Shown: positions 5,638-21,371 of the stretch, piece by piece
Numbering within the stretch: the first letter of the stretch is position 1
Layout of the letters: each line of letters begins with the position of its first letter
DNA from: Candidatus Thorarchaeota archaeon
Lineage (GTDB): Archaea; Asgardarchaeota; Thorarchaeia; Thorarchaeales; Thorarchaeaceae
DNA length: 64,000 bases
NCBI GenBank assembly: GCA_019057475.1
Contig: DXJO01000006.1
Span: 96,001-160,000, forward strand
Direction of reading: 5' to 3'
Program-made: the position numbers and the translations under genes
Notes under the pieces: model-generated
What the model saw: the letters and a program-made list of their open reading frames with translations, nothing else
What the model was told of the DNA's origin: nothing
Databases searched by the model: none

Positions 5638-5667
5638 TTGTTTTTCTACTCACATCTCTTTTTTAGA

Positions 5668-6851: not shown

Positions 6852-7013
6852 GTCCTTTACCCCCCGTATTCATTATGTAACAAAGCGATATAAAGTTGAG
6901 CAAGCGTTTACCTGGGTCAATGCAGATTGTGTCTTCTTCTTGCTCGAGTTCGCGCGGACCCAACATATCACATAAGAGGCGCGAATACAACCGCGGAACC
7001 GGTGGAATACGTA

Positions 7014-8036
7014 ATGCCTACGTCCATTGAACTTGTCGAACAGGCAATGCAGAATGAGGAACCGCCACGCACTCCAGTTATTCCATTAGTCGGGCTGTAT
7101 TCGAGTGTATGCTCGGGATATCCTGTCAACGACCTTCTGAGGGACGGAAACCTACAGGCGAAGTCGCAGCTAGCTGCTCTTCAATGCTTCAAGTATGATG
7201 GTGTTTTCACTTGTATGGACCTTACTGTGGAAGCTGAGGCGCTGGGTGCATCTATCGCGTTTCCGCAAGGAGATTTTCCGTATGTTAGTGATCACCCAGC
7301 AGAATCGCCTTGTGCGGTTCTTGATTTAGAGATGGCATCAATAAAAGGTGCCCGCCTGTTGACATTTGTAAATGCGACAAAACAGCTTGTGAACTGTGTG
7401 GGGCGATCGCACTTGGTTAGCACTTACATAATTGGACCATTCACACTTGCAGGACACCTCATCGGTGTTGAAAGTCTACTCGAATACGCTATCGAGGACC
7501 CAGAGTTGACCAAGAAAGTAGTCAACTACTGTCAGGAGGTGCTTGAGCCTTTGGTAGAAGCGTATATCTCCGCAGGGGCACACAATGCTGTGATTTTGGA
7601 GCCAACAGCTAGTTCGAGCATAATCTCTCCGAAGTTCTTTGAGAAATACTCCGCGCCCGACCTCTCCAGAATGGTGTCGCGCATTCATAAAGGAGGAATA
7701 AAGGCAACCATCCACATATGCGGCAATACACATCCGATATTGCACGCAATGTGCGATACGAAAGCTGATGCTCTGAGCATTGACTCTGCTGTTGATCTGA
7801 AAGAGGCAAAAGAAATAGTCAAGGGGCGTGCGACTCTCATAGGCAATGTCGATACCACTCTCATTCTGACTGCATCCAAAGAAAATGTGCAAAAAGCGGC
7901 GGAAGATTGCCTTAAGAAGGCCGCCAAAGGAGGAAGTTTCTTTCTCTCAACCGGTTGCGACATACCCCTTGAAACTCCAAATCATAATGTACACGCGCTC
8001 GTTAATGCGGCTACCGGCAACTTGACTCAGCATTAG
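7014..8036 (+). CDS. URO-D superfamily MtaA/CmuA-like corrinoid methyltransferase
   Basis: DLTVEAEALG, GPFTLA, HICG zinc motif, GNVD, STGCDIP. Confidence 0.85.
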   Translation: MPTSIELVEQAMQNEEPPRTPVIPLVGLYSSVCSGYPVNDLLRDGNLQAKSQLAALQCFKYDGVFTCMDLTVEAEALGASIAFPQGDFPYVSDHPAESPCAVLDLEMASIKGARLLTFVNATKQLVNCVGRSHLVSTYIIGPFTLAGHLIGVESLLEYAIEDPELTKKVVNYCQEVLEPLVEAYISAGAHNAVILEPTASSSIISPKFFEKYSAPDLSRMVSRIHKGGIKATIHICGNTHPILHAMCDTKADALSIDSAVDLKEAKEIVKGRATLIGNVDTTLILTASKENVQKAAEDCLKKAAKGGSFFLSTGCDIPLETPNHNVHALVNAATGNLTQH

Positions 8037-8158
8037 GTGCTCCAATCAGAAGGTGTGAGCGTACAGAATGTGTCAGCAGCAGGAAAAAGCACCCGAAGAG
8101 TTAAGGCAAGCGGTTGTCCATTGCTAGAAGCCATTGTATTGTTTCTAAGCTAGCCTGA

Positions 8159-9163
8159 ATGCTGAAGATTATGCGCAAGGTAATAGGTGTGAAGAAGGAA
8201 ATGAACAACAAGAACAAGTGGAATGAGATATACGCTGTGGAACATCCACCTCTAGTCAGCTTTGGGGAGGGCGAACTGCTAACGATTTATGATAGTTCAA
8301 GCTTTGGAGTAGCGTCCAACCACACAACCTTGAAACGGGTCTTACTCCACCGACCTTGTGAAGATCTGGAAGCCGTCAAGAAGAATCCAGTATGGTGGCT
8401 TTGGGATGGCGTGCCGGACTTAAAGAAGTCTCGCAGTGAGTGGGACTCTTTTGCGGCTATTCTAGCGAAGAACGGGGTTGAGGTGGAATTACTTGAGAAG
8501 GGGTATCAAGGGTGTGCCAAGAGCTATTTCATGCGAGACCCCGCTACAATGACCCCATGGGGCGCCATCATAAGTCGAATGGCCCTCACCCAGCGATGGG
8601 GTGAGGAGCAGCACATCGCGAAGAAACTCTGGGAAATGCATATCCCCGTCCTAATGATGGTCACAGGCCATGGCATCTTCGAAGGAGGCAACTACATCCC
8701 ACTGGATGAGCACACAGTTATCCTCGGGCGTGGTATCAGGTCCAATGACATCGGAATTCGTCAAGTCCAGAATCTGCTTGAACTCATGGATCTAGAATCG
8801 ATTATCGTTGACATCCCTGCCTATCTGGAGCACTACGGTGGCTATGTTCACGTAGATGTATGCCTGAACCCGATTGACAAGGACTTGGCGCTGGTCTATC
8901 CCCCAGGTCTTCCGTATTGGTTTCTTGAAGATCTCAGAAACCGAGGGTTTGATATGATTGAGGTCGAGAGAGAGGAGGTCTTGCGCATGGGTACAAATGT
9001 ATTGCCTCTTGGAAAAAAGAAAGTCATCCTCCCTGCGGGGAATCCGACTGTCAAGAAGCGTCTTGAGGAAGTTGGAATGAAAATCATTGAAATTAGCATG
9101 AATGAGCTGATGAAGGGCGGCGGCGGACCCCGATGCATTACTATGGAGCTTCTACGAGCTTAG
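8159..9163 (+). CDS. Amidinotransferase/arginine deiminase-fold (pentein) guanidino hydrolase
   Basis: LKRVLLHRP, YFMRDP, FEGGN, HVD, GGGPRC with catalytic Cys; start may be 8201. Confidence 0.82.
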   Translation: MLKIMRKVIGVKKEMNNKNKWNEIYAVEHPPLVSFGEGELLTIYDSSSFGVASNHTTLKRVLLHRPCEDLEAVKKNPVWWLWDGVPDLKKSRSEWDSFAAILAKNGVEVELLEKGYQGCAKSYFMRDPATMTPWGAIISRMALTQRWGEEQHIAKKLWEMHIPVLMMVTGHGIFEGGNYIPLDEHTVILGRGIRSNDIGIRQVQNLLELMDLESIIVDIPAYLEHYGGYVHVDVCLNPIDKDLALVYPPGLPYWFLEDLRNRGFDMIEVEREEVLRMGTNVLPLGKKKVILPAGNPTVKKRLEEVGMKIIEISMNELMKGGGGPRCITMELLRA

Positions 9164-9179
9164 GGGGCGAACATGAGAT

Positions 9180-10142
9180 ATGAACACTCTACGACCTCTC
9201 AAGGGGAAAGACTTCCTCACGCTCATGGACTATTCGAAAGAGGAAATCTTAAGGATTCTTGATCTGGCTGACGAATTGAAAGATAGACTAGCAAAAGGAG
9301 CGCCACATGAGTGTCTCTCTGGCAAAACAATAGCCATGATTTTCGAGAAACACTCCACTCGCACGCGTCTATCATTTCAGGCTGGGGCCGCACACCTGGG
9401 GCTTTCTGCTTTCTATATGGATCCAACCACCATGCAACTATCTCGCGGAGAATCACTTTCTGACACGGCAAAGACAATCGACCGATATATCGACGCACTG
9501 GTCATCCGAACATTCGAACAAGAGATTGTTGAAGACTTCGCGAAGCATATGAAGAAACCAGTCATTAACGCGTTGACTAATGATACTCATCCGATGCAGC
9601 TTCTAGCGGATTTTCAGACGATACGTGAGAAGAAGAAACGTCTGCACGATTTGAAGATAGGATACATTGGAGATGCTTGGAATATGATCCACTCTTGGGG
9701 TATCATGAGCTCCATTATTGGATTGGACATGACTTACGCGGTCCCAGAAGGATACACAGTGAAGACAAAATACAGAGATTTTATCGACAGAACCAACAGG
9801 GAAACTGGTGGCAGCTTCACCGTCACCCACGATCTCAAACAGGCCATGACGGATGTTGACATAGTCGTGGGGATAACTTTCATCAGCATGACTCGTGCCG
9901 GAATGACGGAGGATGCGAAGGCGAAGAAACTCAAAGATTTCATGCCTTATCAAATCGATTCTGAGGTCATGGGGTGGGCTAAGAAAGATGCGATATACAT
10001 GCATTGCCTGCCCGCACATCGCGGAGAGGAGGTAACCGATGAGGTCCTTGATGGTCCTCAATCAGTCGTCTTCGACGAAGCAGAAAACAGAATGCATACC
10101 GAGAAAGCCGTGCTAGCCCTGCTACTCGGCGGGGTGGATTGA
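9180..10142 (+). CDS. Ornithine carbamoyltransferase-family protein (substrate loop atypical)
   Basis: FEKHSTRT, HPMQLLAD, HCLPAHRGEEV, DEAENRMH; GITFISMT in place of TDxWxSMG. Confidence 0.85.
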   Translation: MNTLRPLKGKDFLTLMDYSKEEILRILDLADELKDRLAKGAPHECLSGKTIAMIFEKHSTRTRLSFQAGAAHLGLSAFYMDPTTMQLSRGESLSDTAKTIDRYIDALVIRTFEQEIVEDFAKHMKKPVINALTNDTHPMQLLADFQTIREKKKRLHDLKIGYIGDAWNMIHSWGIMSSIIGLDMTYAVPEGYTVKTKYRDFIDRTNRETGGSFTVTHDLKQAMTDVDIVVGITFISMTRAGMTEDAKAKKLKDFMPYQIDSEVMGWAKKDAIYMHCLPAHRGEEVTDEVLDGPQSVVFDEAENRMHTEKAVLALLLGGVD

Positions 10143-10165
10143 TACGCTGTAACTCGCTTGCGATC

Positions 10166-11305
10166 CTACTTGAGTATTTTAATCATCTCGTCCAATCGGG
10201 ACAATCCCGCATTTAGGTGGTCCTCCTCGTAACCGAAGCCGATTCTTAAATGCATGGGCATTCCGAAGTGTTCACCGGGGATGATTAGCAAGCTTTTCTC
10301 TCTTAACAGACGTGTGGTCAGTTCAAGTGAAGAAACATTCAGATTGTGTCTTGGAAAGCAGATTGAAGCAGCCCTTGGCGCAACGTATTCGAAGACTTCA
10401 TTTCGTTCGTCAAGCCACTCGCGTAGAATACTCCAATGTTTCTTAACAATCCTGCTGGTCCTTTCAAGTATCTTCCTTCGGCATTTTGGTTGCAATGCTA
10501 TTGTTGCAAGTGTATCACTCAGCTTTGTTGGACATATTGTCGTGTAATCTGAATACGCCCACAAGTCTGTCACGTTGATTTTATCCGAGCACATTATCCA
10601 ACCTAGCCTGAGACCGGGAAGTCCGTAAGCTTTTGACAGGCTATTCGTCACAATGACCTTGTCGTAATAGTCGAACATCGTAGGAGTCGAGTCTCCTTCG
10701 AGTTCAGCACCTTGATAGATCTCATCTGAGACCACCCAAAGGTGGGCATCCGCCGCAATCTCGGCAATCGCTTTCAAGTATGTCGGGCCAAAGGTTGCAC
10801 CTGTCGGGTTGTTCGGGTTACAGATGGCTATCGCCATGGTCTTCTTTGATATGGCTGATTTTAGTTCCTCAAGATCCGGAATCCATTCCCCTTTTTCAAT
10901 TTTAAGGCGAAACGGACTCACGACCCCATTGAGCCCTTTGATTATTCCTGGTATCTGCATATAGTTTGGAAGCATCACCACAATCTCTTTGGCATCGTGT
11001 TCATGAAGCAAGTTCCAGATAGTGAGGAAGTTTGCCTCTGCCCCTCCATTTGTGACTAGAACATTGTCCGCGTCTGCCCCTTGATACATGCCGCTAATCG
11101 CCTCCTTTAACGGCATTGTGCCATTGGTTTGTGAGTATGCCAGTTTCGTTTCGATGAGTTCTTTTTGAGCTTCTTTGTCAGGGATAAGATCCGATATCGT
11201 AAGTGGTTCAACGCCACTCTCTGTTAGATTTATGTCTATTACGTGCTCCCACTCTGACTGCATCCGTTCGAGCTCGAAAGGCTCCAATCTCATATCCAAC
11301 ACCAT
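10166..11305 (-). CDS. PLP-dependent aminotransferase class I/II
   Basis: NPNNPTG, DEIY, SLSKAYGLPGLRLGW. Confidence 0.9.
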   Translation of the reverse strand: MVLDMRLEPFELERMQSEWEHVIDINLTESGVEPLTISDLIPDKEAQKELIETKLAYSQTNGTMPLKEAISGMYQGADADNVLVTNGGAEANFLTIWNLLHEHDAKEIVVMLPNYMQIPGIIKGLNGVVSPFRLKIEKGEWIPDLEELKSAISKKTMAIAICNPNNPTGATFGPTYLKAIAEIAADAHLWVVSDEIYQGAELEGDSTPTMFDYYDKVIVTNSLSKAYGLPGLRLGWIMCSDKINVTDLWAYSDYTTICPTKLSDTLATIALQPKCRRKILERTSRIVKKHWSILREWLDERNEVFEYVAPRAASICFPRHNLNVSSLELTTRLLREKSLLIIPGEHFGMPMHLRIGFGYEEDHLNAGLSRLDEMIKILK

Positions 11306-11349
11306 TCCATGTCCACGGGTCCAGGGCTTCTACATCAATCTTCTGTGCA

Positions 11350-12615
11350 CTACTGCAAATATCCCAGTCCTTCAATTATTATGTCGATGGCCTTATCGAT
11401 GTTTTCGTAGGTCTGAGCAAAGGATACTCGAAGAAAGCTTTCTCCTCCCGGCCCGAACCAAGCTCCTGAAACTGTCAGAACCTTAGTCGCAACAATGAGA
11501 TAGAACATTGTGACCAATGAACCCGACCTGTTTAGGTCTTCAATACTGAACAAGTGCTGAGGAAGAGATTCCAAGAAAGCTCTTCCTTTGGTTTTCAGAA
11601 ATGCCTTCATATCATCGTGATGTTTCTCTATCAATTCTCTTGCGTTGACAAACATGTAAAAGGTGCCTTGGGGACTTATAGTACTAAGAAGAGGGATTTC
11701 TTTGTTAATCCTGTTTACAAGAAGCTTCCTTCGTCTGTCATATTCCGCCAACATTGTCTTGACTGGTTCATCAGGTCCGGTGAGCGCAGCGAGTGCCGCT
11801 GCCTGCGAAGTTGTGGGCGCACAGATTGAGCTGTACTGATGGATCTTGCTGAACCCTGTGATGATTTCTTTCGGTGCTATGAGCCAGCCGAGCCTAAAGC
11901 CTGTCATTGCATGACTCTTCGAAAGGCCATTGATTGTGATAGTGCGCTCAAACATGCCGTTAATCGCTGCAGGGCTATGGACCCTTGCTCCATCATATAC
12001 CAGCTGCTCGTACAGTTCATCCGACAGGATAAGAAAGTCATGATCAGTGGCAAGGTCCGCCACCGCTGAAACTTTGTTCCTGTCCCATACTGCTCCGGTG
12101 GGATTGGTTGGTGAGCATACTATAATCATCTTAGTCTTTGGCGTGATTGCTTCTGCAAGTTTTTCCAGTGCGGGTACAAACTGGTCCTCTTCAGTAGCAG
12201 GAACAAAAACGGGTTTGCCTCCTGCAATTCGCACAATCGATTCATATGCGAAATATGAAGGGCTGGGAATAATTACTTCATCGCCTTCGCCCACGGTGGC
12301 AAGGATTGCGCCAAACACGCCGGGGCTAGTGCCCGCTGTGACGATGACTTCACTTTCGGGGTCAACCGTGAAACCGTTGTCGCGCTTTGTTTTATCAGCA
12401 ATCGCTTTCCTTAGTTCTAATGTCCCAGCGTCTGGCGAGTAATGGGTGTTTCCTGACTGTAGAGACCTCATTGCCGCTTCTATGATATGCTTCGGTGTGT
12501 TGAAGTTTGGTTCTCCAATGCCCAGATTCAGCAGTTTGTGATGCTCACCGATATGAAGCAGTAGGCCGATTCTACCAGGGGGCAGTGTTTCCAGATTCTG
12601 CGTTATCTTACCCAA
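11350..12615 (-). CDS. Aspartate/aromatic-type aminotransferase class I/II
   Basis: LGIGEP, SPTNPTG, SDELY, GLSKSHAMTGFRLGW. Confidence 0.9.
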   Translation of the reverse strand: MGKITQNLETLPPGRIGLLLHIGEHHKLLNLGIGEPNFNTPKHIIEAAMRSLQSGNTHYSPDAGTLELRKAIADKTKRDNGFTVDPESEVIVTAGTSPGVFGAILATVGEGDEVIIPSPSYFAYESIVRIAGGKPVFVPATEEDQFVPALEKLAEAITPKTKMIIVCSPTNPTGAVWDRNKVSAVADLATDHDFLILSDELYEQLVYDGARVHSPAAINGMFERTITINGLSKSHAMTGFRLGWLIAPKEIITGFSKIHQYSSICAPTTSQAAALAALTGPDEPVKTMLAEYDRRRKLLVNRINKEIPLLSTISPQGTFYMFVNARELIEKHHDDMKAFLKTKGRAFLESLPQHLFSIEDLNRSGSLVTMFYLIVATKVLTVSGAWFGPGGESFLRVSFAQTYENIDKAIDIIIEGLGYLQ

Positions 12616-12634
12616 TTCTATTCACCCACTTTAA

Positions 12635-13357
12635 TCATAGTCCCAAGAGATTGGCCACAAACTCAGGAAAATCGAGCATTTTAAGGTCACTGCCAGCATG
12701 CTCTACCCTTTCTCTCAGATTGAACGTGCAGAATGGACAAGCTGTGGTCAATATCGTCGCCTCGGTTTCCTCAGCCTCTTGTATTCGAATCGCTGCCGCT
12801 TCGCGTGCCATCTCACGGTTCGTTGAGCGTACACCACCCCCAGCACCGCAACAGGAAGCATTTTTCCCGCTCTTGTGCATCTCCCTCAGTTCAACATTCG
12901 GGATTGCCTGCATGACTTCTCGCGGGTCGTCGTAGATGCCCATATGTCTTCCAACGTGGCAGGGGTCATGATATGTAACTGTGATTGGTTCACCTTTGAG
13001 GAATTCAATTCTGCCATCTTCAATGAGTTCTTTGAGCAGAGTTGGAAAATGGATGACCTCAAACGGGAGCTCTTCTCCTAGGATTGATGGATAATCAACT
13101 GAAATCGTTCTGAAGCAACCTGCGCAAGCTGTGACCACTCCAGTTGCTCCTGCGGCTTTTAGTACGTCCACATTGTGCCGAGCCATGTACTTGGCTTCAT
13201 CAACGTAACCTGTTCTAAGGGCAACGCTACCGCAGCACCATTCATCTTCTCCAAGAATCTTGAAGTCTACGTTTGCATGTTTGAGAACCTTGATTGTTGA
13301 TTCAGCTATGTTTGGAAGACGATATGTTGCCATACATCCAGCGAAATACACTAGCAT
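12635..13357 (-). CDS. CCG-domain Fe-S protein (GlcF/HdrD C-terminal-like)
   Basis: YFAGC, WCCG, TACAGC, YHDPCH, SCCGAGGG, TACPFC. Confidence 0.9.
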   Translation of the reverse strand: MLVYFAGCMATYRLPNIAESTIKVLKHANVDFKILGEDEWCCGSVALRTGYVDEAKYMARHNVDVLKAAGATGVVTACAGCFRTISVDYPSILGEELPFEVIHFPTLLKELIEDGRIEFLKGEPITVTYHDPCHVGRHMGIYDDPREVMQAIPNVELREMHKSGKNASCCGAGGGVRSTNREMAREAAAIRIQEAEETEATILTTACPFCTFNLRERVEHAGSDLKMLDFPEFVANLLGL

Positions 13358-13359
13358 AA

Positions 13360-13752
13360 CTATGCCTCCGCAAGTTCCTTCAACCTGTTTCTGGCCTTTG
13401 GATCTTCACCAAAAGGGTTGTGTGTTTTCTGCATATTCTTGACTAACTGAGCAGATACTTCGTTACCAAGGCCCCTCTTCACGAGCTCAGCGCGCGCAGC
13501 TTCGACAACTGCTGGGATGTCAAGACCGGATAGGCAAGTTGCCTGGCAATTCTTACAGGTTGTGCATTCATACATCCTCTCAGCAACTTCATCCCAGTTC
13601 AGCCATCCTTCCAGCAAAGCAAACAGAATTGTCATCTTGCCTTTCGCACTGTTTGATTCCAAGTTTGTCTGCTTGTAAATGGGGCAATTGGATTGGCATA
13701 GCCCGCAACTGACGCATTCCATGATAATATGTAGGTGTTCCTTCAATGGCAT
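13360..13752 (-). CDS. 2x[4Fe-4S] protein (GlcF/HdrC N-terminal-like)
   Basis: CVSCGLCQSNCP and CTTCKNCQATC. Confidence 0.9.
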   Translation of the reverse strand: MPLKEHLHIIMECVSCGLCQSNCPIYKQTNLESNSAKGKMTILFALLEGWLNWDEVAERMYECTTCKNCQATCLSGLDIPAVVEAARAELVKRGLGNEVSAQLVKNMQKTHNPFGEDPKARNRLKELAEA

Positions 13753-13758
13753 TGCTTT

Positions 13759-15216
13759 CTACTCCGCCATCTCTTCATCAGTCACGTATTCCTTGTAGAT
13801 GAACCCAACATCCGAATCACGTTCCTCAGTGTCCAGCGCCATCTTGCCTGGATTAAGAATTCCATTGGGGTCTAGCAATTTCTTGATTCTTCTATCGAGC
13901 TCGAGTTTGTCTTGGCCAATAGCCATCCGAACATAGGGATTCTTGACATAGCCGAATCCGTGCTCCGCTGTAACCACGCCGCCTATGCCCACGACATATT
14001 CTAGAATTTCCTGTTCGGCCTTCTTCATCGCGACCCAATGTTCTCTATTCCTTGCATCAATTAGGACTGCAGGATGAATTATCCCAATTCCCGCATGGCA
14101 GAAGACGGCGGCAATGATGCCATGAGACCGGATTATCCGACCGATCTCCCTGATCGCTTCAGCTTGTTTAGACAGTGGAACACAAGGATCTGCCGCGGCA
14201 AAACCGAACTCTCTGTATCCGGGATGCACCTTCACTATTGCTGTGTCTATCTCCAATCTTGGAGCCCAGAGTTTGTTGGTTGTTTCTTCATCCCGTGCTA
14301 TGACGACATTCTCGCCGCCATGCTCCTTGAGGATTCTCTCCATCACCATCAGCTTGCGCTGAAGATTCTCTTCATCGAAGCCTTGGACATCTCCAACGAA
14401 GTTGCCCTCACAAGTTGGGAATCCGAGATTCATGACATCACTGATTGTTTTCACGGTTTTGCCATCGGTCGCCTCAAAGGTTCCCGCATCAATTCCCGAC
14501 ATAGTGATCGCCAAAGAAGCATTCATCAGCCCATCAAGATTCTGGAAGAAGGCACCGATGGTTGCCTCAACTGGCATTCTAGGTACAAGTTTCAGGGTTG
14601 CTTCGGTGATTATTCCCAGGGTACCCTCAGACCCAGCGAAGAGTGCAGCTAGGTTGTATCCCATGTTGTAGCGAGGTGCTCTTGTTCCCAGTCTAAGGAT
14701 TGTCCCATCAACCAAAACTACTTCCATACCTTGAATCCAAGCTCCAACTCGACCATGCTTGTAGGCATGGTGACCGTTTGAGTCCGAGGCGAGGATTCCA
14801 CCGATGGTCGCGGCGTTATGACTTCCGACGTCATGAGGAAAGGTCAGTCCTCTTCTCTCCAGCTCGTGTTCGAATGTTTCGTATCTGACTCCAGGCTGAA
14901 CAATGGCAATCATGTCTTCGTTGCTAATCTCAAGGATCTTGTTCATGCGACTCAGGTCGAGAAGTATTCCTCCTCTAACGGCAAGCGACGACCCCTGAAA
15001 TGATGCACCGCCGCCTCGGGGCGTGACTGGTACTCCCTTTTCATTGAGCAGAATAAGTATCTCCACGACTTGCTCAGTAGTTGTTGGATAGACCACCGCA
15101 TCGGGAATTGAGAAATACGGTGTGAGGTCCCGAGAATAAGCAACTCGATCGACCTTGGCCGTTATAACATTATTTTCGCCAACGATTTGCCTAAGCTGTT
15201 CAATTGTATCTGACAC
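13759..15216 (-). CDS. FAD-linked oxidoreductase, GlcD/D-2-hydroxyacid dehydrogenase family
   Basis: PRGGG, ATIGG, GSEGTLGIITE, EHGFG, LDPNGILNPGK. Confidence 0.88.
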   Translation of the reverse strand: MSDTIEQLRQIVGENNVITAKVDRVAYSRDLTPYFSIPDAVVYPTTTEQVVEILILLNEKGVPVTPRGGGASFQGSSLAVRGGILLDLSRMNKILEISNEDMIAIVQPGVRYETFEHELERRGLTFPHDVGSHNAATIGGILASDSNGHHAYKHGRVGAWIQGMEVVLVDGTILRLGTRAPRYNMGYNLAALFAGSEGTLGIITEATLKLVPRMPVEATIGAFFQNLDGLMNASLAITMSGIDAGTFEATDGKTVKTISDVMNLGFPTCEGNFVGDVQGFDEENLQRKLMVMERILKEHGGENVVIARDEETTNKLWAPRLEIDTAIVKVHPGYREFGFAAADPCVPLSKQAEAIREIGRIIRSHGIIAAVFCHAGIGIIHPAVLIDARNREHWVAMKKAEQEILEYVVGIGGVVTAEHGFGYVKNPYVRMAIGQDKLELDRRIKKLLDPNGILNPGKMALDTEERDSDVGFIYKEYVTDEEMAE

Positions 15217-15232
15217 GTTTGGGGCACCTTCT

Positions 15233-16327
15233 CTACCGTTTGACTCTCTTTTTCTTCTTCGTAATCCTACGGATAAGCTTGTAGATGATAAAGAGAATTA
15301 GCAAGAGTCCAACAATAGCGCCATAACCAAGCAGTAAATTCTGGTTCAAGAACCCTCCAGTCCAGTCCAAAACCGGCAGACCCAACAAGAACTGGTTGAG
15401 ATCCTGTAGAATAACGTCTAGACCGATTGTGACGAGGAAGCTACTCACAATGGTCAGCATCGTCGATACGATAATCGAGAGAGATACCCAAGTGATTGAT
15501 GTGGGCTCAAAGTACATCAAATACATCATAAAGCTGAAGAACCCAACAACAATAATTGTGCCCACGTAGTCTCTCGCCTTGAACGAGAGATCCTCGACAT
15601 TGGTCCGGTCTTCACGAGCTCCAAATGCTCTTGCATTGATGGCCACCTCAAGGTCCATTGCGCGGCGAAACATCAGAAGAAGGAGTGGCGTTATGATGGG
15701 GACGTACGCTCTCCTGAGCTTCTGATACATGTTGGCAGCATCAATGTCAAACCCCCTGATTTTTTGAGCCTCTATGATAGCGTCCATGCTTTCCTGAACC
15801 AGAGGGACAAACCTCATAGCTGTGATGAACATGAAAATAATTTTCTGAGGAACGCGTATCTTCGCAAGTGCACCGCTAATCTTGGTCATTGGGGAAGTCA
15901 TTGTGAAGATGGGTACGACAGTGACTACAGCAATGACCCGGAGCATAACAAGCAGACCATACATTATTCCGCCGATTGTTATCTCACCATAATTGACCAT
16001 AACATTTCCATGCTCGTCGGGCCAGGGCAAATCAAACAGCTGCAGGATTACTGTGCTATCGCCAAACCTGTAGGTTAGTCCTTGCACCAAGAACAGAAAC
16101 ACGAAGAGCATACTCAACAGCTTTAGCAGGAACCCCAGGCTGCTAAGCTCGATTTTTCCAACAAGCCACCATAGAGAGGCGAACGATATCCAAATTAGGA
16201 GTATGCTGATATGCTCGATGCTCGTGCATTGGACAACTAAGATGAGCGCCAAAAACATAAGGAGCAGCTTCACAAGAGGACTCATTCTATCCAGAGGTGT
16301 GTCCTTTTTGACGTACTCGAACGCCAT
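15233..16327 (-). CDS. ECF transporter T component
   Basis: MRFVP, AQKIRG and AINARAF arginine motifs; multiple TM helices. Confidence 0.88.
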   Translation of the reverse strand: MAFEYVKKDTPLDRMSPLVKLLLMFLALILVVQCTSIEHISILLIWISFASLWWLVGKIELSSLGFLLKLLSMLFVFLFLVQGLTYRFGDSTVILQLFDLPWPDEHGNVMVNYGEITIGGIMYGLLVMLRVIAVVTVVPIFTMTSPMTKISGALAKIRVPQKIIFMFITAMRFVPLVQESMDAIIEAQKIRGFDIDAANMYQKLRRAYVPIITPLLLLMFRRAMDLEVAINARAFGAREDRTNVEDLSFKARDYVGTIIVVGFFSFMMYLMYFEPTSITWVSLSIIVSTMLTIVSSFLVTIGLDVILQDLNQFLLGLPVLDWTGGFLNQNLLLGYGAIVGLLLILFIIYKLIRRITKKKKRVKR

Positions 16328-16329
16328 GC

Positions 16330-18081
16330 CTAGGCACCTCCTGCCTTGAAACAGGCAAGCATTTCATCGACAGTCACCAAGTTCTTTTCTATGCCGTAGC
16401 CTTCAAGCTTCTGAGAGAGCTGTATGATTTGAGGAGGCTTTAGAAATGCCTTATCCATGACCTCATGCATACTGAAGACTTCACGCTTTGGACCATCAGC
16501 GATAATTATCCCCTCGACCATAACAACGAGCCGATCTGCATACTGAGCAACAAGGTCCATATCGTGCGAGATCATGACGATTGTCTTTCCCTTCTCTCGC
16601 ATGCGTGTGGCAATTTGACACAGTGCGTGACGCCCTTGGTAATCCTGTGCAGTAGTTGGTTCATCCAGAATCAAGATATCAGGATCCATTGCAATCCCAG
16701 CTGCAGCTGCTACCTTCCGGCGGTCGCCAAAGCTCAATCTGAATGGAAAGATGTCCCGCATATCCTCCAGACCCGCTTCTTTCAAACTCTCTTCCACTCG
16801 CCGGGCTATTTCGTCCTCAGGGAGGCCCAAATTCCTCAAACCGAACTCGAGCTCCTTCTCTACACTTATGCAAAAGAGCTGGTAGTCAGGATTCTGCAAT
16901 ATCAATGCAATGCTCTTTGCAATGCTGCCCGTGGTTAATTCCGATACATCTTCACCCTCGACCTTTGTCACTCCTTCGGTGGCCTCTAGAAGTCCCAGAA
17001 AATGTTTTACCAGGGTTGTTTTGCCGCTCCCATTCTGGCCAACAATCGCCACAATCTCACCTCGCTTGATTTTGAGATTAATACCCCTGAGGGCAGTTAC
17101 TGGTATTCTTGCCGGATATACGAAAGTAACATTCTCAACTTCAAGCACAGTTTCGTCAGACATCGGTGGCGCAGGAAGCGGTTCCGTCCATTCCACTTGG
17201 AAAAATCCTTCGTCCAATAGTTCCTTGAGCATAGAGTAGGACTCGTCCAGGGTCAGCGGTAAGCCCCCGATCCGCTCTAATCTCTCTTGGAACCCTGGAA
17301 TTTTCTTGGCCATCTTGGCGGCGAGTACGGTTACCGCAGGCGGGTTTACACCAACACTATCTAACAGCTCAGTCTGTGCAAAGACATCCTTTGGGGTACC
17401 TAAGGCCATGACACGACCATCACTTAGAACTAGAACTTTTGACGCCAGTCTGGCAATCTCGTCTGTCTTATGACTGGTGATGAGAATCGTCATGTCTTCT
17501 GTGTTTGCCAGCTGCTTTATGACATCGAATACCTCAGTTGTGCCGATTGGGTCCAGCTGGCTTGTTGGCTCATCTAGAATTAAGACCTCCGGGAGCATCG
17601 TAAGTCCCGCAGCTAATGCAACTCGCTGTTTCTGGCCGCCACTCAACTCTTTGGGCTTTCGTTCTTCAAGGCCGTCAATACCACAGACTTTGGCCGCCCA
17701 AGCTGCACGCCGAAGTATCTCATCCCGTTCGACTGCAAGATTCGCCGGACCAAAGAATAACTCTGAAGCAACATTCGTAGTTGTGAACTGAGACTCTGGA
17801 TCTTGGAGAACCATCGATACTTTGCTTGCGAGCTGAATAATGGGTGTTTCCCACGGATCCAGACCACAAAGGCTGATCGACCCCTTTTCGACTCCGGTGT
17901 AGACCGTGGGAATTATCCCATTCAGATGGAAACATAGTGTTGTTTTCCCCGCACCATTCGCTCCGAGAATTCCAAGTATCTCGCCCTTCTTGACTTCGAA
18001 ACTAACTTCATGCAAAGCAAGAGGACCACGCTCATAGGTGAAAGTGACATTATTCACTTTTGCTGTCGAGTATTCAGTCAT
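16330..18081 (-). CDS. ECF transporter fused A-A' ATPase
   Basis: Two ABC domains: GANGAGKT/LSGGQ/DEPT and GQNGSGKT/LSFGD/DEPT. Confidence 0.92.
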   Translation of the reverse strand: MTEYSTAKVNNVTFTYERGPLALHEVSFEVKKGEILGILGANGAGKTTLCFHLNGIIPTVYTGVEKGSISLCGLDPWETPIIQLASKVSMVLQDPESQFTTTNVASELFFGPANLAVERDEILRRAAWAAKVCGIDGLEERKPKELSGGQKQRVALAAGLTMLPEVLILDEPTSQLDPIGTTEVFDVIKQLANTEDMTILITSHKTDEIARLASKVLVLSDGRVMALGTPKDVFAQTELLDSVGVNPPAVTVLAAKMAKKIPGFQERLERIGGLPLTLDESYSMLKELLDEGFFQVEWTEPLPAPPMSDETVLEVENVTFVYPARIPVTALRGINLKIKRGEIVAIVGQNGSGKTTLVKHFLGLLEATEGVTKVEGEDVSELTTGSIAKSIALILQNPDYQLFCISVEKELEFGLRNLGLPEDEIARRVEESLKEAGLEDMRDIFPFRLSFGDRRKVAAAAGIAMDPDILILDEPTTAQDYQGRHALCQIATRMREKGKTIVMISHDMDLVAQYADRLVVMVEGIIIADGPKREVFSMHEVMDKAFLKPPQIIQLSQKLEGYGIEKNLVTVDEMLACFKAGGA

Positions 18082-18256
18082 TATCGCAGGCTCCACCAGA
18101 TAATCGCGCATTCCTTCTATAAGATATATCTCTTCCTTTGCAAATGTCTGTCAAAGGCAATCAGTCACTCTATTCGACTTACCAACGATGTATGCAAATC
18201 AGGAGCATGAAGTTGGCTTATGACCTCAGCTGATAAGGGCAAGAAAAGAAAATATG

Positions 18257-18280
18257 GCACTGGCCAGAAAAGGCCAGTGC
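18257..18280 (-). terminator. Hairpin plus U-rich tract after the ECF S gene
   Basis: Perfect 9-bp stem GCACTGGCC/GGCCAGTGC followed on the minus strand by CATATTTTCTTTTCTT. Confidence 0.55.
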
Positions 18281-18293
18281 TCGTTGTTTCGCA

Positions 18294-19076
18294 TCACCAA
18301 ATGGCATCTGGAATACGGGGCAAGCCGCTTCTCTTAAGCGCCTCTACAATCGGTATTGCGATGATGGTCGTAAGGATGGCTAGCACAGGCCACCACACAG
18401 TGTAGCCTATGTTCGTCCCGGTCGCAAGTGCCATTGGATATGTAAAGATGTACCAGTACGGCGCTGCCCACCAGTAATAGAACGCCATGAAACCCATTAG
18501 AAACACGAGGAAGACGCCAAGATACTGCATTTTGGGATCATCCCCTCGGCACCATTCTGGAATCAGTTTCCTACCTATTGGCGTAAGCGTTATGATTAGC
18601 CACGGAAGCCAGAAGACAGGTGTTGTCGCAAAAAACGTAAGAGTCGCAGGTTCCCCAGGTATTGTGGGCCAGACATATGGGAAGACAATGAACATCACTC
18701 CCGTGATAACTAGGGCGACAACTGTCAATATCCAAGCAATGATCTTGTTTGTGTTGACAAACAAAGCGGTAAACACCGCAGGCATTATTCCTGTGAGCAG
18801 CACATCCAAAAGGCCTAATGGGAACATGGCAGGACTCACGAACATGCCAATAATCCCTCCGATAATTGCGGCTATTATCCCGCCAATCGGGCCAAGTATA
18901 AGCGGACCGATGGCAGTGAACACAACTGATAGAGGTACAAAACCTCCACCTCCGAAGTATGGGAATATCGGGACCAGGGCAAGTGCGCCGTTTATCGCAC
19001 CGTAGACTGCAATAAAGGCAATATTGGCTCCTCCGTATCCCATCGGGGCTCTCTCTCTCGTTCGTTCTTCTGTCAC
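18294..19076 (-). CDS. ECF transporter substrate-binding S component
   Basis: Highly hydrophobic, ILGPIGGIIAAIIGG motif, upstream of ECF A and T genes; start uncertain (19043-19127). Confidence 0.78.
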   Translation of the reverse strand: MTEERTRERAPMGYGGANIAFIAVYGAINGALALVPIFPYFGGGGFVPLSVVFTAIGPLILGPIGGIIAAIIGGIIGMFVSPAMFPLGLLDVLLTGIMPAVFTALFVNTNKIIAWILTVVALVITGVMFIVFPYVWPTIPGEPATLTFFATTPVFWLPWLIITLTPIGRKLIPEWCRGDDPKMQYLGVFLVFLMGFMAFYYWWAAPYWYIFTYPMALATGTNIGYTVWWPVLAILTTIIAIPIVEALKRSGLPRIPDAIW

Positions 19077-19470
19077 GCGAATTTCCTCCCAGTAGGTTAT
19101 TAGCCTACTAGTAAAAACGATACTCATAAAGCTGAACCGACTTATATCAGTTGGCTAATCGCGAGCCAATAATACAGCAGCATTGTTCAGTTACGAATAG
19201 AAGCATTCTGCTTAACTGACGCTCGTTTTCTGGCTAGTTCACGGCATACAGACAGGTTGAGCTAGCGAATGGTCATTAAGGTCCTATTGGCATTCAAAGC
19301 TGCGTTTTCAACCATTGTTTTGCAGTGTGCCCCATTCTTTCTAATTTATGACAGGAAAAGGGCCTCAGGTTCGAAAAGCACGACTCGGAATGTTCAAATC
19401 GTGGAATCGATGAAGTAGTTCCCATTGTTACCTACGATTTAATGCGGCCATTCTCCTATGGTGAAACAAT

Positions 19471-20121
19471 ATGGGAACCAAAAAAATCCTTGAGATTCTC
19501 AAGCAAACCATTATTGATGGAAACCGAAAGGCCACTCCTGCGCTCGCGCAGAAGGCAATTGATATGGAAGTCCCCCCCTATACCATTGTGACAGATGCAT
19601 GCTCACCGGCAATGGCTGAGGTTGGAGAGCTCTATCAGCAAGGTGAGTACTTCGTCCCTGAGATTCTAATGTCAGCCAAGGCATTTGAGTCTGCAATGGC
19701 CATTATTGAACCACTTCTCAAGAGCAAGAAGTTGGAGCTCGCTGGCACCGTAGTCCTTGGAGTCTGCGAGGGTGACATACACTCAATCGGAAAGAACTTG
19801 GTTGCCACCATGTTGGAGGCGGGCGGGTTCAACGTCATCGACTTGGGTACAGATGTACCCGCGAAGAAGTTCATCGCAACCGCCATCAAGAGCAACGCTG
19901 ACATTATTGGGGTTTCTGCTCTGATGACCACATCGATGATTGGTATGAAAGACATCGTACATATGGTGAAAGAAGAAGGACTGGGCGTGAAAGTCATGGT
20001 GGGTGGAGGACCAGTCAACCAAGAGTACGCAGATTCGATTGGGGCAAATGCATACGGTCGGGATGCGATGGATGCCGTAAGAGTGGCGAGGAATCTCATG
20101 GAAGACATAAGGGGGTCGTAA
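19471..20121 (+). CDS. Corrinoid (cobalamin-binding) methyltransferase cognate protein, MtbC/MttC-like
   Basis: Cap domain EYFVPE, GDIHSIGKNLV (DxHxxG), SALMTT, VMVGGGP. Confidence 0.92.
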   Translation: MGTKKILEILKQTIIDGNRKATPALAQKAIDMEVPPYTIVTDACSPAMAEVGELYQQGEYFVPEILMSAKAFESAMAIIEPLLKSKKLELAGTVVLGVCEGDIHSIGKNLVATMLEAGGFNVIDLGTDVPAKKFIATAIKSNADIIGVSALMTTSMIGMKDIVHMVKEEGLGVKVMVGGGPVNQEYADSIGANAYGRDAMDAVRVARNLMEDIRGS

Positions 20122-20125
20122 GTCT

Positions 20126-21145
20126 ATGCAATCTGGCAAGGAACTCATTGACACTGCTTTGTATGGCGGCATTCCCGAGAGGATTCCAGTATCCATAGTA
20201 TCAACAGCTTGGATCTTCAATAACTACGGCCAGGACTTGGCATTGGTTGATCGCGACGGAGAGCAGATGGCAAAATCCTGGCTCGCGTTCAATAGGGACT
20301 TCGGAGCGGACTCCGTGTGCCCAATGCTTAGCCCTATGCTTATCCCCGAATATTATGGATCTGAACTGAGAATACCGCAAGGCGGTTTTCCGCTTCTCGT
20401 CAAGCCGGCAATTCAGGAGCCAGCGGATCTTGACAAACTTGAAGCGTTTGATCCAGCTGGAGCGCCTCGAGTTGCGGCCGCTGTCGATTGTGTGAAAAGA
20501 CTAGTCAAGGAGATAGGTTCGACCACATTCATCTGGTTGGTGTGCATAGGGCCCATTTCAACCCTCTCCCGCCTAATGGACACTCAGCTAATCATGGAGT
20601 GTCTTGTGGAGGACCCCGGGTTTATTGAGCGTGCTTTCGAGTTCAGCGTTGAGGTTTTCAAAACAACAATGGAGCCTCTCATTGAAAGCGGCGTAGATGC
20701 AATTGATTTTTCTGACCCCGTCGCGTCTCCTGATATGGTTTCGCCACGAATGTACAAACGATTCTTCTGGAAACATGACAGAGAGGTCGCGAAATGGATT
20801 CAATCCAAAGGTGTTCATGCCATCTACCACATCTGTGGAGATGTACTTAGAATAATCGAGGAGATGCAAAACACAACAGCAAGGGGGTTGAGTGTTGACG
20901 CGCCATTAGACCTTGCACAGGCAAGAGATAGGGTTCCTGACGCAACACTGATTGGAAATGTGGACCCAGCTAACATCATCATGAATGGCACACCCGCTAC
21001 AGTGACAGCCGCTTGCGAGGCGGCAATGATACAGGGTGGATCTAATGGTAGGTTCATCTTGGCTCCAGGCTGCGATGTGCCGCCAACATCTCCATCTCGG
21101 AATATCGATGCGATGATTCGTGCAGCCAGGCAATTCAGACACTAA
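20126..21145 (+). CDS. URO-D superfamily MtaA/CmuA-like corrinoid methyltransferase
   Basis: HICG, GNVDP, APGCDVP; 4 nt after the corrinoid gene. Confidence 0.85.
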   Translation: MQSGKELIDTALYGGIPERIPVSIVSTAWIFNNYGQDLALVDRDGEQMAKSWLAFNRDFGADSVCPMLSPMLIPEYYGSELRIPQGGFPLLVKPAIQEPADLDKLEAFDPAGAPRVAAAVDCVKRLVKEIGSTTFIWLVCIGPISTLSRLMDTQLIMECLVEDPGFIERAFEFSVEVFKTTMEPLIESGVDAIDFSDPVASPDMVSPRMYKRFFWKHDREVAKWIQSKGVHAIYHICGDVLRIIEEMQNTTARGLSVDAPLDLAQARDRVPDATLIGNVDPANIIMNGTPATVTAACEAAMIQGGSNGRFILAPGCDVPPTSPSRNIDAMIRAARQFRH

Positions 21146-21371
21146 TCCAATCCAGTTTCAGTGTTTGAATGGGTTCTTGGACCGATGCATCACTTCTAGC
21201 ATTCGCTAGTAGTTGTATGTGATTGATTATGTGCCATTGTCGTCCCTACGTCACCTAATCTCTCCTCTTGCACAATCAAAGATAACAGCCAGGATTGAAG
21301 TCGATGCCGCTATTACGATCGCCATAATTGCACGCAGCATACTGAAGCTCCAGCCTAGTTTTCCGGCTGTT

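Follow-up and report, generated by a model that had tools for sequence, protein, structure and literature searches.

Gene content of the locus

The window, a stretch of 64,000 nucleotides from a marine-sediment Thorarchaeon, was analyzed by ORF listing together with Pfam and NCBIfam scans. As shown in Table 1, 13 contiguous genes lie at positions 7014-21145, bracketed by two MtaA-like methyltransferases, exactly as an earlier sequence-only reading had described. This gene island was confirmed to be real and not a chance neighbourhood. It is made of three separable modules rather than one fixed operon. M1 consists of an MtaA-like methyltransferase (MT_A), a corrinoid protein (CoP), and a second MtaA-like methyltransferase (MT_B). 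M2 consists of an ECF S/A-A′/T importer, a GlcD-like protein whose FeS and CCG subunits are split, and AT2, an aminotransferase of class I. M3 consists of a short pentein of the ADI type and a carbamoyltransferase (CT), to which a class III aminotransferase, an OCD-family gene, and AT1 may be added. The class III aminotransferase and OCD genes of the relatives are absent from the island in the window; the class III aminotransferase ortholog of the host genome is on another contig (C26). The intergenic region in Table 1 has no Rfam match at E 0.1 or better.

Table 1. Features of the island, numbered from the first nucleotide of the window.
Feature	Positions	Strand	Family evidence
MT_A, MtaA-like (URO-D family) corrinoid methyltransferase	7014..8036	+	Pfam URO-D, 230 bits
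Short pentein / guanidino-group hydrolase, ADI type	8159..9163	+	Pfam ADI and DDAH_eukar
CT, non-canonical OTC-like carbamoyltransferase ("GDxWN, Asp-less" clade)	9180..10142	+	TIGR00658, 362 bits, above cut-off
AT1, class I PLP enzyme, PRK07324/GntC/VioD-like subgroup	10166..11305	-	NCBIfam
AT2, class I aspartate/aromatic-type aminotransferase	11350..12615	-	Pfam Aminotran_1_2, 221 bits
CCG-domain subunit, C-terminal half of GlcF/HdrB-type proteins	12635..13357	-	Pfam CCG x2, 145 bits
2x[4Fe-4S] subunit, N-terminal half of GlcF	13360..13752	-	Pfam Fer4_8 and Fer4_17
GlcD-like FAD-dependent D-2-hydroxyacid dehydrogenase	13759..15216	-	Pfam FAD_binding_4 and FAD-oxidase_C
ECF T component, CbiQ-type	15233..16327	-	Pfam CbiQ, 100 bits
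Fused ECF A-A′ ATPase	16330..18111	-	TIGR04521 464.7 and TIGR04520 461.7 bits, both above cut-off
Putative ECF S component, rare family	18294..19127	-	Polytopic membrane protein in S position
343-nt divergent intergenic region, between the ECF...AT1 string and CoP-MT_B	19128..19470		
CoP, corrinoid (B12-binding) protein	19471..20121	+	Pfam B12-binding_2 and B12-binding
MT_B, second MtaA-like (URO-D family) methyltransferase	20126..21145	+	Pfam URO-D, 179 bits

Components of the three modules

MtaA (4AY7) is the closest solved structure to MT_A and the sole PDB match of MT_B. The longest MT_A ORF starts from a TTG at 6927, and the ATG at 7014 fits the homologs of about 340 residues. MT_A scores 188.8 bits against TIGR01463 (mtaA_cmuA), under the cut-off of 235.4. 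A Zn motif is present in both methyltransferases (H263-x-C265...C344 in MT_A and H235-x-C237...C316 in MT_B). MT_B begins 4 nucleotides after CoP, which had been called divergent but is not notably so; it keeps the DxHxxG motif and scores 210.9 bits against TIGR02370 (cut-off 215.3). In the tree, MT_A clusters (82/87, not starred) with the MT_As that stand in a same-strand string preceding the pentein and CT genes in other genomes, and MT_B falls in a separate, fully supported clade of 16 orthologs. The string, MT_A-(EamA)-(class III aminotransferase)-pentein-CT, was found in the window and at five other loci (L013, L021, L025, L028, and L045).

M1 resembles the UroD-family three-component corrinoid systems (MtaA/MtbA, MtsA, the O-demethylase MtoABC, and CdmBCA; PMC13222342) in that a DxHxxG corrinoid protein is flanked by URO-D-fold methyltransferases and RamA-type activases are encoded elsewhere in the genome, which has two RamA-like genes and one MttB gene outside the island. 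In contrast to those systems, both island methyltransferases are MtaA-like with a Zn motif, both are below the MtaA/CmuA subfamily cut-off, there is no MtaB, MttB, or MtoB-type MT1 in the island, and amino-acid enzymes adjoin the methyltransferases. Since some UroD-family O-demethylases contain Zn (PMC13222342), the Zn motif does not separate thiol from O-methyl donors.

In M2, the GlcD-like protein scores 334.8 bits against TIGR00387, under the glcD equivalog cut-off of 567.9, and its closest PDB entries are a D-lactate dehydrogenase (8JDC), a glycolate oxidase (9QGZ), and LctD (7QH2). The FeS subunit has the N-terminus of GlcF as its top NCBIfam match, and CCG subunit orthologs in other genera are 74-79% identical. 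Like the GlcDEF glycolate oxidase and the Desulfovibrio-type D-lactate dehydrogenase, the island combines a GlcD-like flavoprotein with 2x[4Fe-4S] and CCG domains, while separate genes encode the FeS and CCG halves, the GlcE of glycolate oxidase is missing, and the unit always occurs with an aminotransferase and an ECF importer. AT2 accompanies the GlcD, FeS, CCG, and ECF genes in every core cluster; in the PDB it is closest to the aromatic/aspartate aminotransferases of P. horikoshii, 1DJU and 1GD9 (302 bits).

The importer had been described as a complete ECF system. This stands for the A-A′ protein, which is a fusion of two ABC domains, and for the T component, while the S component, having no Pfam or NCBIfam match, is assigned from its position, its conservation, and its language-model similarity to clusters, part of which carry PF07155. 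Its AlphaFold model is of low confidence. The S family is rare, with 64 representatives among 1.84 billion proteins. A scan for it returned 80 metagenomic loci; where the metagenomic locus is at least 6 kb in length, EcfA-A′ adjoins the S gene in 51 of 52 cases and EcfT in 49 of 52. At 39 loci from outside the Thorarchaeaceae, the operon comprises GntR/FCD (11 loci), a LarA-type hydroxyacid racemase (27), the ECF genes, and a class III aminotransferase (22). Two unrelated loci combine the S-family ECF genes with parts of M3; at L089 they stand with a class III aminotransferase, a distant pentein, and a GDxWN-type CT (52-61% identical), and at L115 with an OCD gene and an AT1-like gene of 41.5% identity.

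The pentein is approximately 320-334 residues in length and scores far under the cut-off for all NCBIfam equivalogs. Orthologs with at least 67% identity are limited to Thorarchaeaceae, and R126-D127, E175, H231-x-D233, and C326 are invariant across 13 relatives. The ADI-type H-x-D, where the DDAH alignment shows H-x-K, and both guanidinium-binding Asp residues point to NH3 release from an unsubstituted omega-nitrogen, not to DDAH-like methylamine release. Thus, the claim that three enzymes have non-canonical active-site motifs is clear only for the substrate motif of CT; the catalytic residues of the pentein are canonical.

CT begins 16 nucleotides after the pentein gene. Compared with P. furiosus OTC (1PVV), GDGNNV has become GDAWNM, YTDVWASMG has become VGITFISMT with D231 replaced by Ile, and four residues have been inserted, while STRT, HPxQ, HCLP, and the ornithine-contacting Lys and Asn are retained (for the roles of the ornithine-contact residues, see PMC4581275). 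The ornithine-binding Asp of DxxxSMG is found in none of the 120 closest relatives of CT. This Asp binds the alpha-amino group of ornithine, and a canonical OTC paralog exists on contig C21 of the same genome, which upholds the earlier view that CT is not an ordinary ArgF. AT1 scores 304 bits for PRK07324, 249 for GntC, 193 for VioD, and at most 145 for generic aminotransferases, and its closest PDB entries are 3OP7, GntC (8FFT), and 4M2J.

M3 resembles the arginine deiminase pathway (ArcA-ArcB-ArcC) in that a pentein hydrolase precedes an OTC-family carbamoyltransferase and a carbamate kinase exists in the genome, which would allow the route from guanidino to ureido compound, to amine and carbamoyl phosphate, and to ATP. 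However, ArcA is longer than the pentein by about 80 residues, and the pentein score of about 90 bits falls well short of the 489 cut-off; CT lacks the DxxxSMG Asp and is a paralog of the canonical enzyme, and an ECF or EamA transporter takes the place of the arginine/ornithine antiporter. The kinase is unlinked to the island; its sole match in the genome is on contig C38, in line with the earlier statement that the window has none. CT also resembles putrescine carbamoyltransferase (PTC) and other non-OTC transcarbamylases (PMC4581275) in having an OTC-like fold with an altered second-substrate loop, and the catabolic use of PTC after a pentein deiminase is what is proposed for CT. Yet CT scores 281 bits on the PTC model, whose cut-off is 500. 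PTC retains an Asp in the 230s loop; in the CT clade, the position of the OTC Asp is occupied by Ile, Val, or Asn, and the first Asn of GDxNN is replaced by an aromatic residue.

Conservation and modularity

At least four genera of Thorarchaeaceae share the gene content of the island, and the genes are arranged in no fewer than four orders. One locus has all 13 genes (L028) and another has 12 (L027). Other loci have M1 and M3 genes (L021/L022), M2 and M3 genes (L029 and L031), or M1 and M2 without M3 (L041, L042/L054, L053, L061, and L065); genomes of the last type outnumber those in which M3 accompanies M1 and M2. M1 and M2 stay adjacent even where M1 is inverted with respect to M2. Of the nine loci with sufficient flanks, eight have M3 no more than 10 kb from M1 and/or M2 genes, in at least four different arrangements, and M3 was inserted into the M1-M2 core at two different positions. 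One lineage has M3 by itself on a 73-kb contig. In G383, a 77% complete genome, about 0.8 Mb separates the GlcD ortholog from M3, and a search for MT_B at E 1e-60 or better found none. Thus, the co-location on which the sequence-only reading had staked its case was found in other genomes, with the order rearranged, while the expected conservation across Asgard archaea and Bathyarchaeia was not borne out; the cluster was found only in Thorarchaeaceae. Since the full clusters all come from this one family, shared ancestry inflates the apparent conservation.

A proposed composite of three modules

The explanation that I favour, at a little under an even chance, is that three separable modules handling one class of imported compound make up the island, which may be why Thorarchaeaceae keep M1, M2, and M3 together. 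Direct observation covers which genes are present, their conservation in rearranged form, the modularity, the changed motifs, and the genomic sites of the missing parts; from these I infer the reactions, the direction of flux, and which methyltransferase is MT1 and which MT2. M2 would be the older unit, of a widespread type of ECF operon in which uptake is coupled to the interconversion of 2-hydroxy, 2-oxo, and 2-amino acids by the D-2-hydroxyacid dehydrogenase and AT2. M1 would be a methyl relay, from the substrate to Co(I) and then to an acceptor, kept active by the RamA-type activases from elsewhere in the genome. The host is not a methanogen and coenzyme M is therefore an unlikely acceptor; a pterin of the Wood-Ljungdahl pathway is a probable one. 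M3 would be an accessory feeder module, joined here by AT1 and in relatives by the class III aminotransferase and the OCD-family gene. The pentein would deiminate a guanidino compound to a ureido compound, releasing NH3, CT would phosphorolyse the latter to an amine and carbamoyl phosphate, and the unlinked carbamate kinase would use carbamoyl phosphate to make ATP. The methyl donor and the guanidino compound may be the same or related molecules.

A less likely alternative is that the modules share no substrate: an ordinary fermentative arginine deiminase route, a D-lactate or 2-hydroxyacid dehydrogenase working with an aminotransferase of the alanine/aspartate type, and a corrinoid system for methylotrophy would have stayed in proximity as an island of energy metabolism or simply through common descent in one family. 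That each module occurs without the others and that the full clusters belong to a single family are as expected from this, as are the CT score above the OTC equivalog cut-off, the D-lactate dehydrogenase closest to GlcD, and the pairing of MT_A-like paralogs at other loci with MttB or other URO-D methyltransferases plus RamA. It fits poorly with an adjacency that persists through at least four arrangements, including the insertion of M3 within the core, and with a CT that is a dedicated paralog. Furthermore, the rare S family independently adjoins pentein, WN-type CT, AT1-like, and OCD genes outside the Thorarchaeaceae.

Somewhat less probable again is the single pathway originally proposed, in which the importer brings in a methylated guanidino compound, methylarginine-like or creatine, that is deiminated, transcarbamoylated, demethylated by the corrinoid system, and then transaminated and oxidized as a hydroxyacid. 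The co-location, the unusual CT, and the link of S component, pentein, and CT at L089 speak for it, together with the probable co-transcription of MT_A with pentein and CT in the window and five other loci and the two insertion sites of M3. The loss of Asp and the gain of Trp and Ile in CT would fit a product that is smaller or carries an N-alpha substituent, such as sarcosine, and the GlcF match of the FeS subunit makes glycolate/glyoxylate/glycine chemistry conceivable. Against it are the modularity, with M1 and M2 mostly found without M3 and M3 also found alone, and the ADI-type H-x-D of the pentein. In relatives, the neighbouring class III aminotransferase and OCD genes suggest a product of ornithine length rather than sarcosine. 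Among MT1s for N-methyl groups, none is known from the URO-D family, and a literature search found no paper tying corrinoid methyltransferases to creatine or guanidino compounds. The claim that the methyl and guanidino groups are on one molecule was not supported; as the substrate, a methylated guanidino compound is a possibility without proof.

Vitamins and metals are the usual cargo of ECF transporters, and in the lar operons of lactobacilli an ECF-type Ni importer adjoins LarA. It is very improbable that the island importer likewise brings in a cofactor or metal (corrinoid, Co, or Ni) for CoP instead of a pathway substrate: the CbiQ-type T component and the LarA homologs at 27 of the 39 loci would agree with this, but the S family has no His, Cys, or Met (start Met apart) in invariant or nearly invariant columns, the island has no CbiM/NikM Pfam match, most S-family loci lack a corrinoid protein, and LarA is absent from the Thorarchaeaceae clusters, with only weak matches (25-27% identical) on other contigs of genome G000.

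That micronutrients are what ECF transporters mostly bring in counts against the composite of three modules, since it suits salvage better than bulk catabolism. Because the Asp that contacts the free alpha-amino group of ornithine is missing from CT, the most likely substrate is not plain arginine but a compound of the arginine/citrulline family with a change at C2 or N-alpha (2-hydroxy, 2-oxo, or N-substituted). The ornithine-like reading in relatives comes from class III aminotransferase and OCD genes that this island lacks, which counts against the composite, as do the dispersed genes in G383, the origin of all full clusters from one family, and the poor discrimination by the Zn motif. In a Bacillota genome, a carbamoyltransferase of the Asp-less clade adjoins a class III aminotransferase and an aldehyde:ferredoxin oxidoreductase; this neighbourhood is also compatible with ornithine, and the clade could still act on citrulline.

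Gene layout

The ORF listing, combined with Pfam and NCBIfam scans, bore out the 13 contiguous genes described in the sequence-only reading, and they form three transcription strings. They encode two MtaA-like URO-D methyltransferases (MT_A and MT_B), a corrinoid protein (CoP), a pentein, a carbamoyltransferase (CT), two class I aminotransferases (AT1 and AT2), a GlcD flavoprotein with FeS and CCG partners, and an ECF importer with its putative S component, EcfS. Save for the one behind EcfS, the gaps within the minus-strand string are 2-44 nt. No Rfam match was obtained at E 0.1 or better in window positions 5500-22000, so no riboswitch is recognized in the intergenic regions. The source genome (G000) is 3.34 Mb in size and 96% complete, and the named organisms with the most similar proteins are Candidatus Thorarchaeota. 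In a sequencing-run search, the only run containing the whole stretch was a marine sediment metagenome, probably the source sample, and no RNA run containing it was listed.

Genes of the island and their window coordinates
Gene	Position	Strand	Remark
MT_A	6927/7014-8036	+	first string
pentein	8159-9163	+	122 nt after MT_A
CT	9180-10142	+	16 nt after pentein
AT1	11305-10166	-	last gene, second string
AT2	12615-11350	-	second string
CCG	13357-12635	-	second string
FeS	13752-13360	-	second string
GlcD	15216-13759	-	second string
EcfT	16327-15233	-	second string
fused EcfA-A'	18111-16330	-	second string
EcfS	19127-18294	-	heads second string; 182-nt gap behind
CoP	19471-20121	+	third string, divergent from EcfS across 343 nt
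MT_B	20126-21145	+	third string, after CoP

The window lacks a carbamate kinase gene, as had been noted from the sequence. The single genomic match is on another contig (C38:18097-19020, 365.7 bits, above cut-off), where the surrounding genes are unrelated. Genes for two RamA-like activases and a single MttB gene are also located elsewhere in this genome.

Divergent from MT_A lies a gene (5922-6851, minus strand) for a membrane protein that contains an extended His/acidic repeat and whose sole matches are low-complexity, SdrC/ClfA-type repeats. It is upstream of a Band_7/flotillin gene (4330-5637, minus strand), and the pair also adjoins the island in G005, a genome of the same genus. Directly downstream of MT_B are two large tandem proteins of 678 and 647 residues (21372-23408 and 23484-25427, both minus strand) with no Pfam family and only faint similarity to beta-propeller lipoproteins.

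Conservation and modularity

Is the gene set kept together elsewhere? In G005 the island is fully syntenic, which says little alone because the proteins are about 90% identical. Co-location was also found in other genera of the same family (f1, Thorarchaeaceae), where the proteins are 45-79% identical and the order is rearranged. One locus (L028, genome G381) has the complete set of 13, differently ordered and with a class III aminotransferase added, and another (L027, G354) has 12 genes, with the pentein-CT block shifted to between GlcD and AT2. The SMTZ1-83 loci (L021/L022) carry MT_A, EamA, a class III aminotransferase, two penteins, CT, an OCD-family gene, AT1, CoP, MT_B, and AT2. In L029 and L031, the pentein-CT pair is directly adjoined by ECF/AT2 or AT2/CCG/FeS/GlcD genes. 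The content is thus kept through at least four arrangements, which argues for selection on gene proximity, the caveat being that a single family supplies all the full clusters.

The wider conservation across Asgard archaea that the sequence-only reading had proposed to look for was not seen. Of the 86 genomes in family f1, 29 have an MT_A ortholog (28 of 85 when G000 is set aside), whereas the remaining 314 Asgard genomes yielded none with an E-value of 1e-70 or better. Among the 400 Asgard genomes, pentein orthologs with at least 67% identity were found in family f1 only. When species genomes were scanned with a pattern from the pentein alignment, the only returns were the Thorarchaeota already known and one Gemmatimonadota match (39% identical). 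The island is real, conserved, and unannotated. No published description of the cluster was found in the literature on Thorarchaeota or Asgard archaea with corrinoid, MtaA, or arginine deiminase, or on corrinoid with creatine.

All queries were mapped onto 28 MT_A-anchored loci and onto called genes, which resolved three separable modules. M1 consists of MT_A, CoP, and MT_B and often adjoins an HdrABC/MvhD/GltD-like set. M2 comprises EcfS, EcfAA', EcfT, GlcD, FeS, CCG, and AT2, with a CN_hydrolase added in three loci. M3 pairs CT with one or two copies of the pentein, optionally accompanied by an upstream class III aminotransferase, a downstream OCD-family gene, and AT1. M1 and M2 occur without M3 in L041, L042/L054, L053, L061, and L065, M1 being sometimes inverted relative to M2. 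M3 stands alone on a 73-kb contig (L020), and in G383 the GlcD ortholog is about 0.8 Mb away from M3 and MT_A. These cases indicate that M1+M2 is the more widespread core, to which M3 is an accessory. In eight of nine informative loci, M3 is nonetheless no more than 10 kb away from genes of M1 and/or M2. That the modules are simply independent of one another is possible but somewhat unlikely.

The pentein

The pentein family is 320-334 residues in length (334 for the window protein). It has the catalytic Cys-His-Glu set of ArcA and both guanidinium-binding Asp residues: R126-D127, E175, H231-x-D233, and C326 are unchanged across 13 relatives (alignment A1). The protein is far under all NCBIfam cut-offs. 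It is not a full-length ArcA (about 410 residues), scoring 90.2 vs 489.1 bits on TIGR01078 in two partial stretches, nor a DDAH (best model 68 vs 300 bits). Aligned to the Pseudomonas aeruginosa DDAH 3RHY, it has H-V-D where DDAH has H-L-K, a replacement that may exclude methyl groups sterically. A double Asp and an H-x-D pattern are typical of ADI-type enzymes. By this pattern, the pentein is predicted to deiminate an unsubstituted omega-nitrogen rather than to release methylamine. A short ADI-type pentein appears confined to the Thorarchaeaceae.

This bears on the proposal of the sequence-only reading that the whole island serves one imported methylated guanidino compound, whose methyl group is captured on the corrinoid. 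Such a single-substrate pathway is possible but unlikely, being weakened by both the modularity and the ADI-type signature of the pentein.

The nearest pentein relatives outside Asgard are a tandem pair in a Thermoplasmatota genome (GCA_048620975.1, L023:1-5508; 46% identical). Behind this pair come genes for an Orn/DAP/Arg decarboxylase and an amidohydrolase, then a GlcD-like FAD_binding_4 gene, so a second phylum may have a related route for basic amino acids.

The carbamoyltransferase

CT has the carbamoyl-phosphate motifs STRT, HPMQ, and HCLP and exceeds the ornithine carbamoyltransferase (OTC) cut-offs (TIGR00658, 362 vs 280.85 bits; NF001986, 374 vs 306 bits). In OTC, ornithine is directly bound by D231, S235, and M236 (PMC4581275). 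Relative to the Pyrococcus furiosus OTC 1PVV, GDGNNV is replaced by GDAWNM, and YTDVWASMG by VGITFISMT followed by a four-residue insertion. In place of the DxxxSMG loop of EC 2.1.3.3, CT has I232-T-F-I-S-M-T. Judged by aligned positions, CT keeps the FxKxSxRT Lys, the counterpart of Escherichia coli Asn N167, and the Ser-Met pair, while the D231-equivalent Asp is Ile.

This trait is shared by a clade of at least 120 cluster representatives annotated as OTC. Among the 120 nearest, the D231 position is occupied by Asn (101), Ile (11), Val (6), or Thr (2) and never by Asp, and the first Asn of GDxNN is aromatic in all 120. A canonical paralog on contig C21 of G000 has GDSNNV and YTDTFFSMG with the Asp present. 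The same combination occurs in a Bacillota genome, which encodes both a canonical OTC (451 bits) and an Asp-less paralog (388 bits). In every genome where this could be checked, the Asp-less member is an extra paralog. Judged from sequence, the loss of the Asp, with canonical paralogs in the same genomes, places CT in a distinct paralogous clade, though pipelines now name it OTC; its specificity is probably new. The expectation that CT is not an ordinary ArgF was thus upheld.

A common genomic context for the wider Asp-less clade (P0163, P0150, P0198) was sought and proved inconsistent, save for the Bacillota genome, whose Asp-less paralog adjoins a class III aminotransferase and an aldehyde:ferredoxin oxidoreductase. 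Further transcarbamylase homologs of G000 are on C3 and C18. Those on C3 (C3:43045-45207; locus L085:7028-9217) are two tandem genes, about 32% identical to CT, adjoining a penicillin-amidase-family gene and an SBP_bac_5 binding protein; in G401, a related genome, such homologs do not reach the cut-off for OTC.

The methyltransferases and the corrinoid protein

MT_A and MT_B score 230 and 179 bits on the URO-D Pfam model, retain the H-x-C...C zinc motif, and have MtaA 4AY7 as the nearest solved structure. Both miss the MtaA/CmuA subfamily cut-off (TIGR01463, 188.8 and 157.6 vs 235.4 bits). CoP has B12-binding_2 and B12-binding domains with a DxHxxG motif and scores 210.9 bits on TIGR02370, slightly below the cut-off of 215.3. 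Since zinc is present in some UroD-family O-demethylases and absent from others (PMC13222342), the zinc motif leaves the methyl donor undecided.

MT_A precedes pentein-CT in a same-strand string in the window and in L013, L021, L025, L028, and L045. In a maximum-likelihood tree, the MT_As in this position form one group (support 82/87, not starred), and MT_A-like genes beside MttB, RamA, or other URO-D methyltransferases form a separate well-supported subclade. MT_A-like genes of other Thorarchaeaceae (L046:9387-13922 and L047:8723-13303) have two kinds of neighbourhood: one comprises a corrinoid protein, a RamA-type activase, and a long URO-D protein of divergent sequence, and the other an MttB-family gene together with an amino-acid permease. 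This indicates that the family carries several distinct corrinoid methyl-transfer systems.

The predicted hydroxyacid dehydrogenase, aminotransferases, and ECF importer

The GlcD flavoprotein and the FeS/CCG partner domains were recognized by Pfam. The PDB entries nearest to GlcD are a D-lactate dehydrogenase (8JDC), a glycolate oxidase (9QGZ), and LctD (7QH2), and the protein misses the glcD equivalog cut-off (TIGR00387, 334.8 vs 567.9 bits); no GlcE-like gene is among the island ORFs. AT1 is markedly nearer the PRK07324/GntC/VioD group of PLP enzymes for arginine derivatives than generic aminotransferases, and AT2 resembles archaeal aromatic/aspartate aminotransferases.

The T component of the importer matches CbiQ (100 bits), and EcfA-A', with two ABC domains, is above the cut-offs of TIGR04521 and TIGR04520, as expected of a dedicated (group I) ECF transporter. 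EcfS matches no Pfam or NCBIfam family; its language-model similarity is to clusters carrying PF07155. The family is rare, with 64 representatives in 1.84 billion proteins. An AlphaFold model intended for fold search, built with seven orthologs, was unusable (mean pLDDT 48).

A metagenome scan with the narrower S-family alignment (A4), the broad one (A3) being too divergent, gave 80 loci. In the 52 loci of at least 6 kb, EcfA-A' is beside the S gene in 51 and EcfT in 49; this regular placement, like the similarity to PF07155 clusters, favours EcfS as the S component. ORF clustering with Pfam and NCBIfam scans of 39 non-Thorarchaeota loci of at least 9 kb, whose S components are 39-48% identical, revealed a recurrent operon. 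In it, EcfS, EcfAA', and EcfT are joined by a PRK08117-type class III aminotransferase (22/39 loci), a LarA-family nickel-pincer 2-hydroxyacid racemase (27/39), and a GntR/FCD regulator (11/39), while some loci have GlcD, OCD, and a class I aminotransferase instead. Examples are L103:7261-8538, L143:8600-14843, L120:4914-11115, and about 35 further metagenomic loci (L102-L168). These neighbours tie the S family generally to 2-hydroxyacid enzymes and aminotransferases, and M2 is one version of this theme. The GntR/FCD-LarA-ECF-class III aminotransferase operon is apparently widespread and undescribed, giving a rare S-component family a conserved setting with a LarA-type racemase.

Import of a cofactor by the ECF system is very improbable. 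The invariant and nearly invariant columns of the S-family alignments contain neither His nor Cys, nor any Met other than the initial one, which argues against a metal substrate.

Genes of the M3 type are added in two non-Thorarchaeota loci. In L089, a class III aminotransferase, a GDVWNV-type CT (52-61% identical), and a distant pentein of 451 residues surround the ECF genes. In L115, an OCD gene is accompanied by an AT1-like gene whose full-length identity is 41.5%; an OTC suggested there by tblastn was spurious, the ORF lacking a transcarbamylase motif. On the short contig L161, a corrinoid protein and a URO-D methyltransferase are beside the S gene.

Interpretation

The best reading is a composite island of three units working on related compounds, probably arginine-family compounds altered at C2 or N-alpha. 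The ECF-fed unit would interconvert 2-hydroxy, 2-oxo, and 2-amino acids; the second would be a corrinoid methyl relay, physically tied to amino-acid enzymes; and the third, an ADI-like deiminase/transcarbamylase, may act as a feeder whose carbamoyl phosphate the unlinked kinase would turn into ATP. Methionine salvage from 4-dimethylsulfonio-2-hydroxybutyrate as the function of the core, a creatine-sarcosine-glycine/glycolate route, and argininic acid or 2-oxoarginine as substrates were set aside.

A more far-reaching reading is speculative and rather unlikely. An imported methyl-bearing arginine-family compound without a free alpha-amino group would be deiminated; a new subfamily of transcarbamylases would then phosphorolyse it, with a gain of ATP, and a URO-D-type MT1 would pass its methyl group to the corrinoid for the Wood-Ljungdahl pathway. 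If true, this undescribed anaerobic route would be the first link of a pentein and a transcarbamylase to corrinoid methyl transfer, and its importer would be one of the rare ECF systems that feed catabolism. What is known about the substrates of Thorarchaeota, uncultured Asgard archaea that abound in marine sediments, comes from gene lists only. With the substrate identified, metabolic models of sediment Asgard archaea would gain a source of carbon, nitrogen, and energy, and a new transcarbamylase specificity could be defined.

A possible second mini-cluster, contained within 8 kb, lies elsewhere in G000 (C51:51729-59845). It has a class III aminotransferase (33% identical to the Thorarchaeota AT3), a CN_hydrolase (49% to the core-cluster copy of L041), and a corrinoid-protein paralog (42%).
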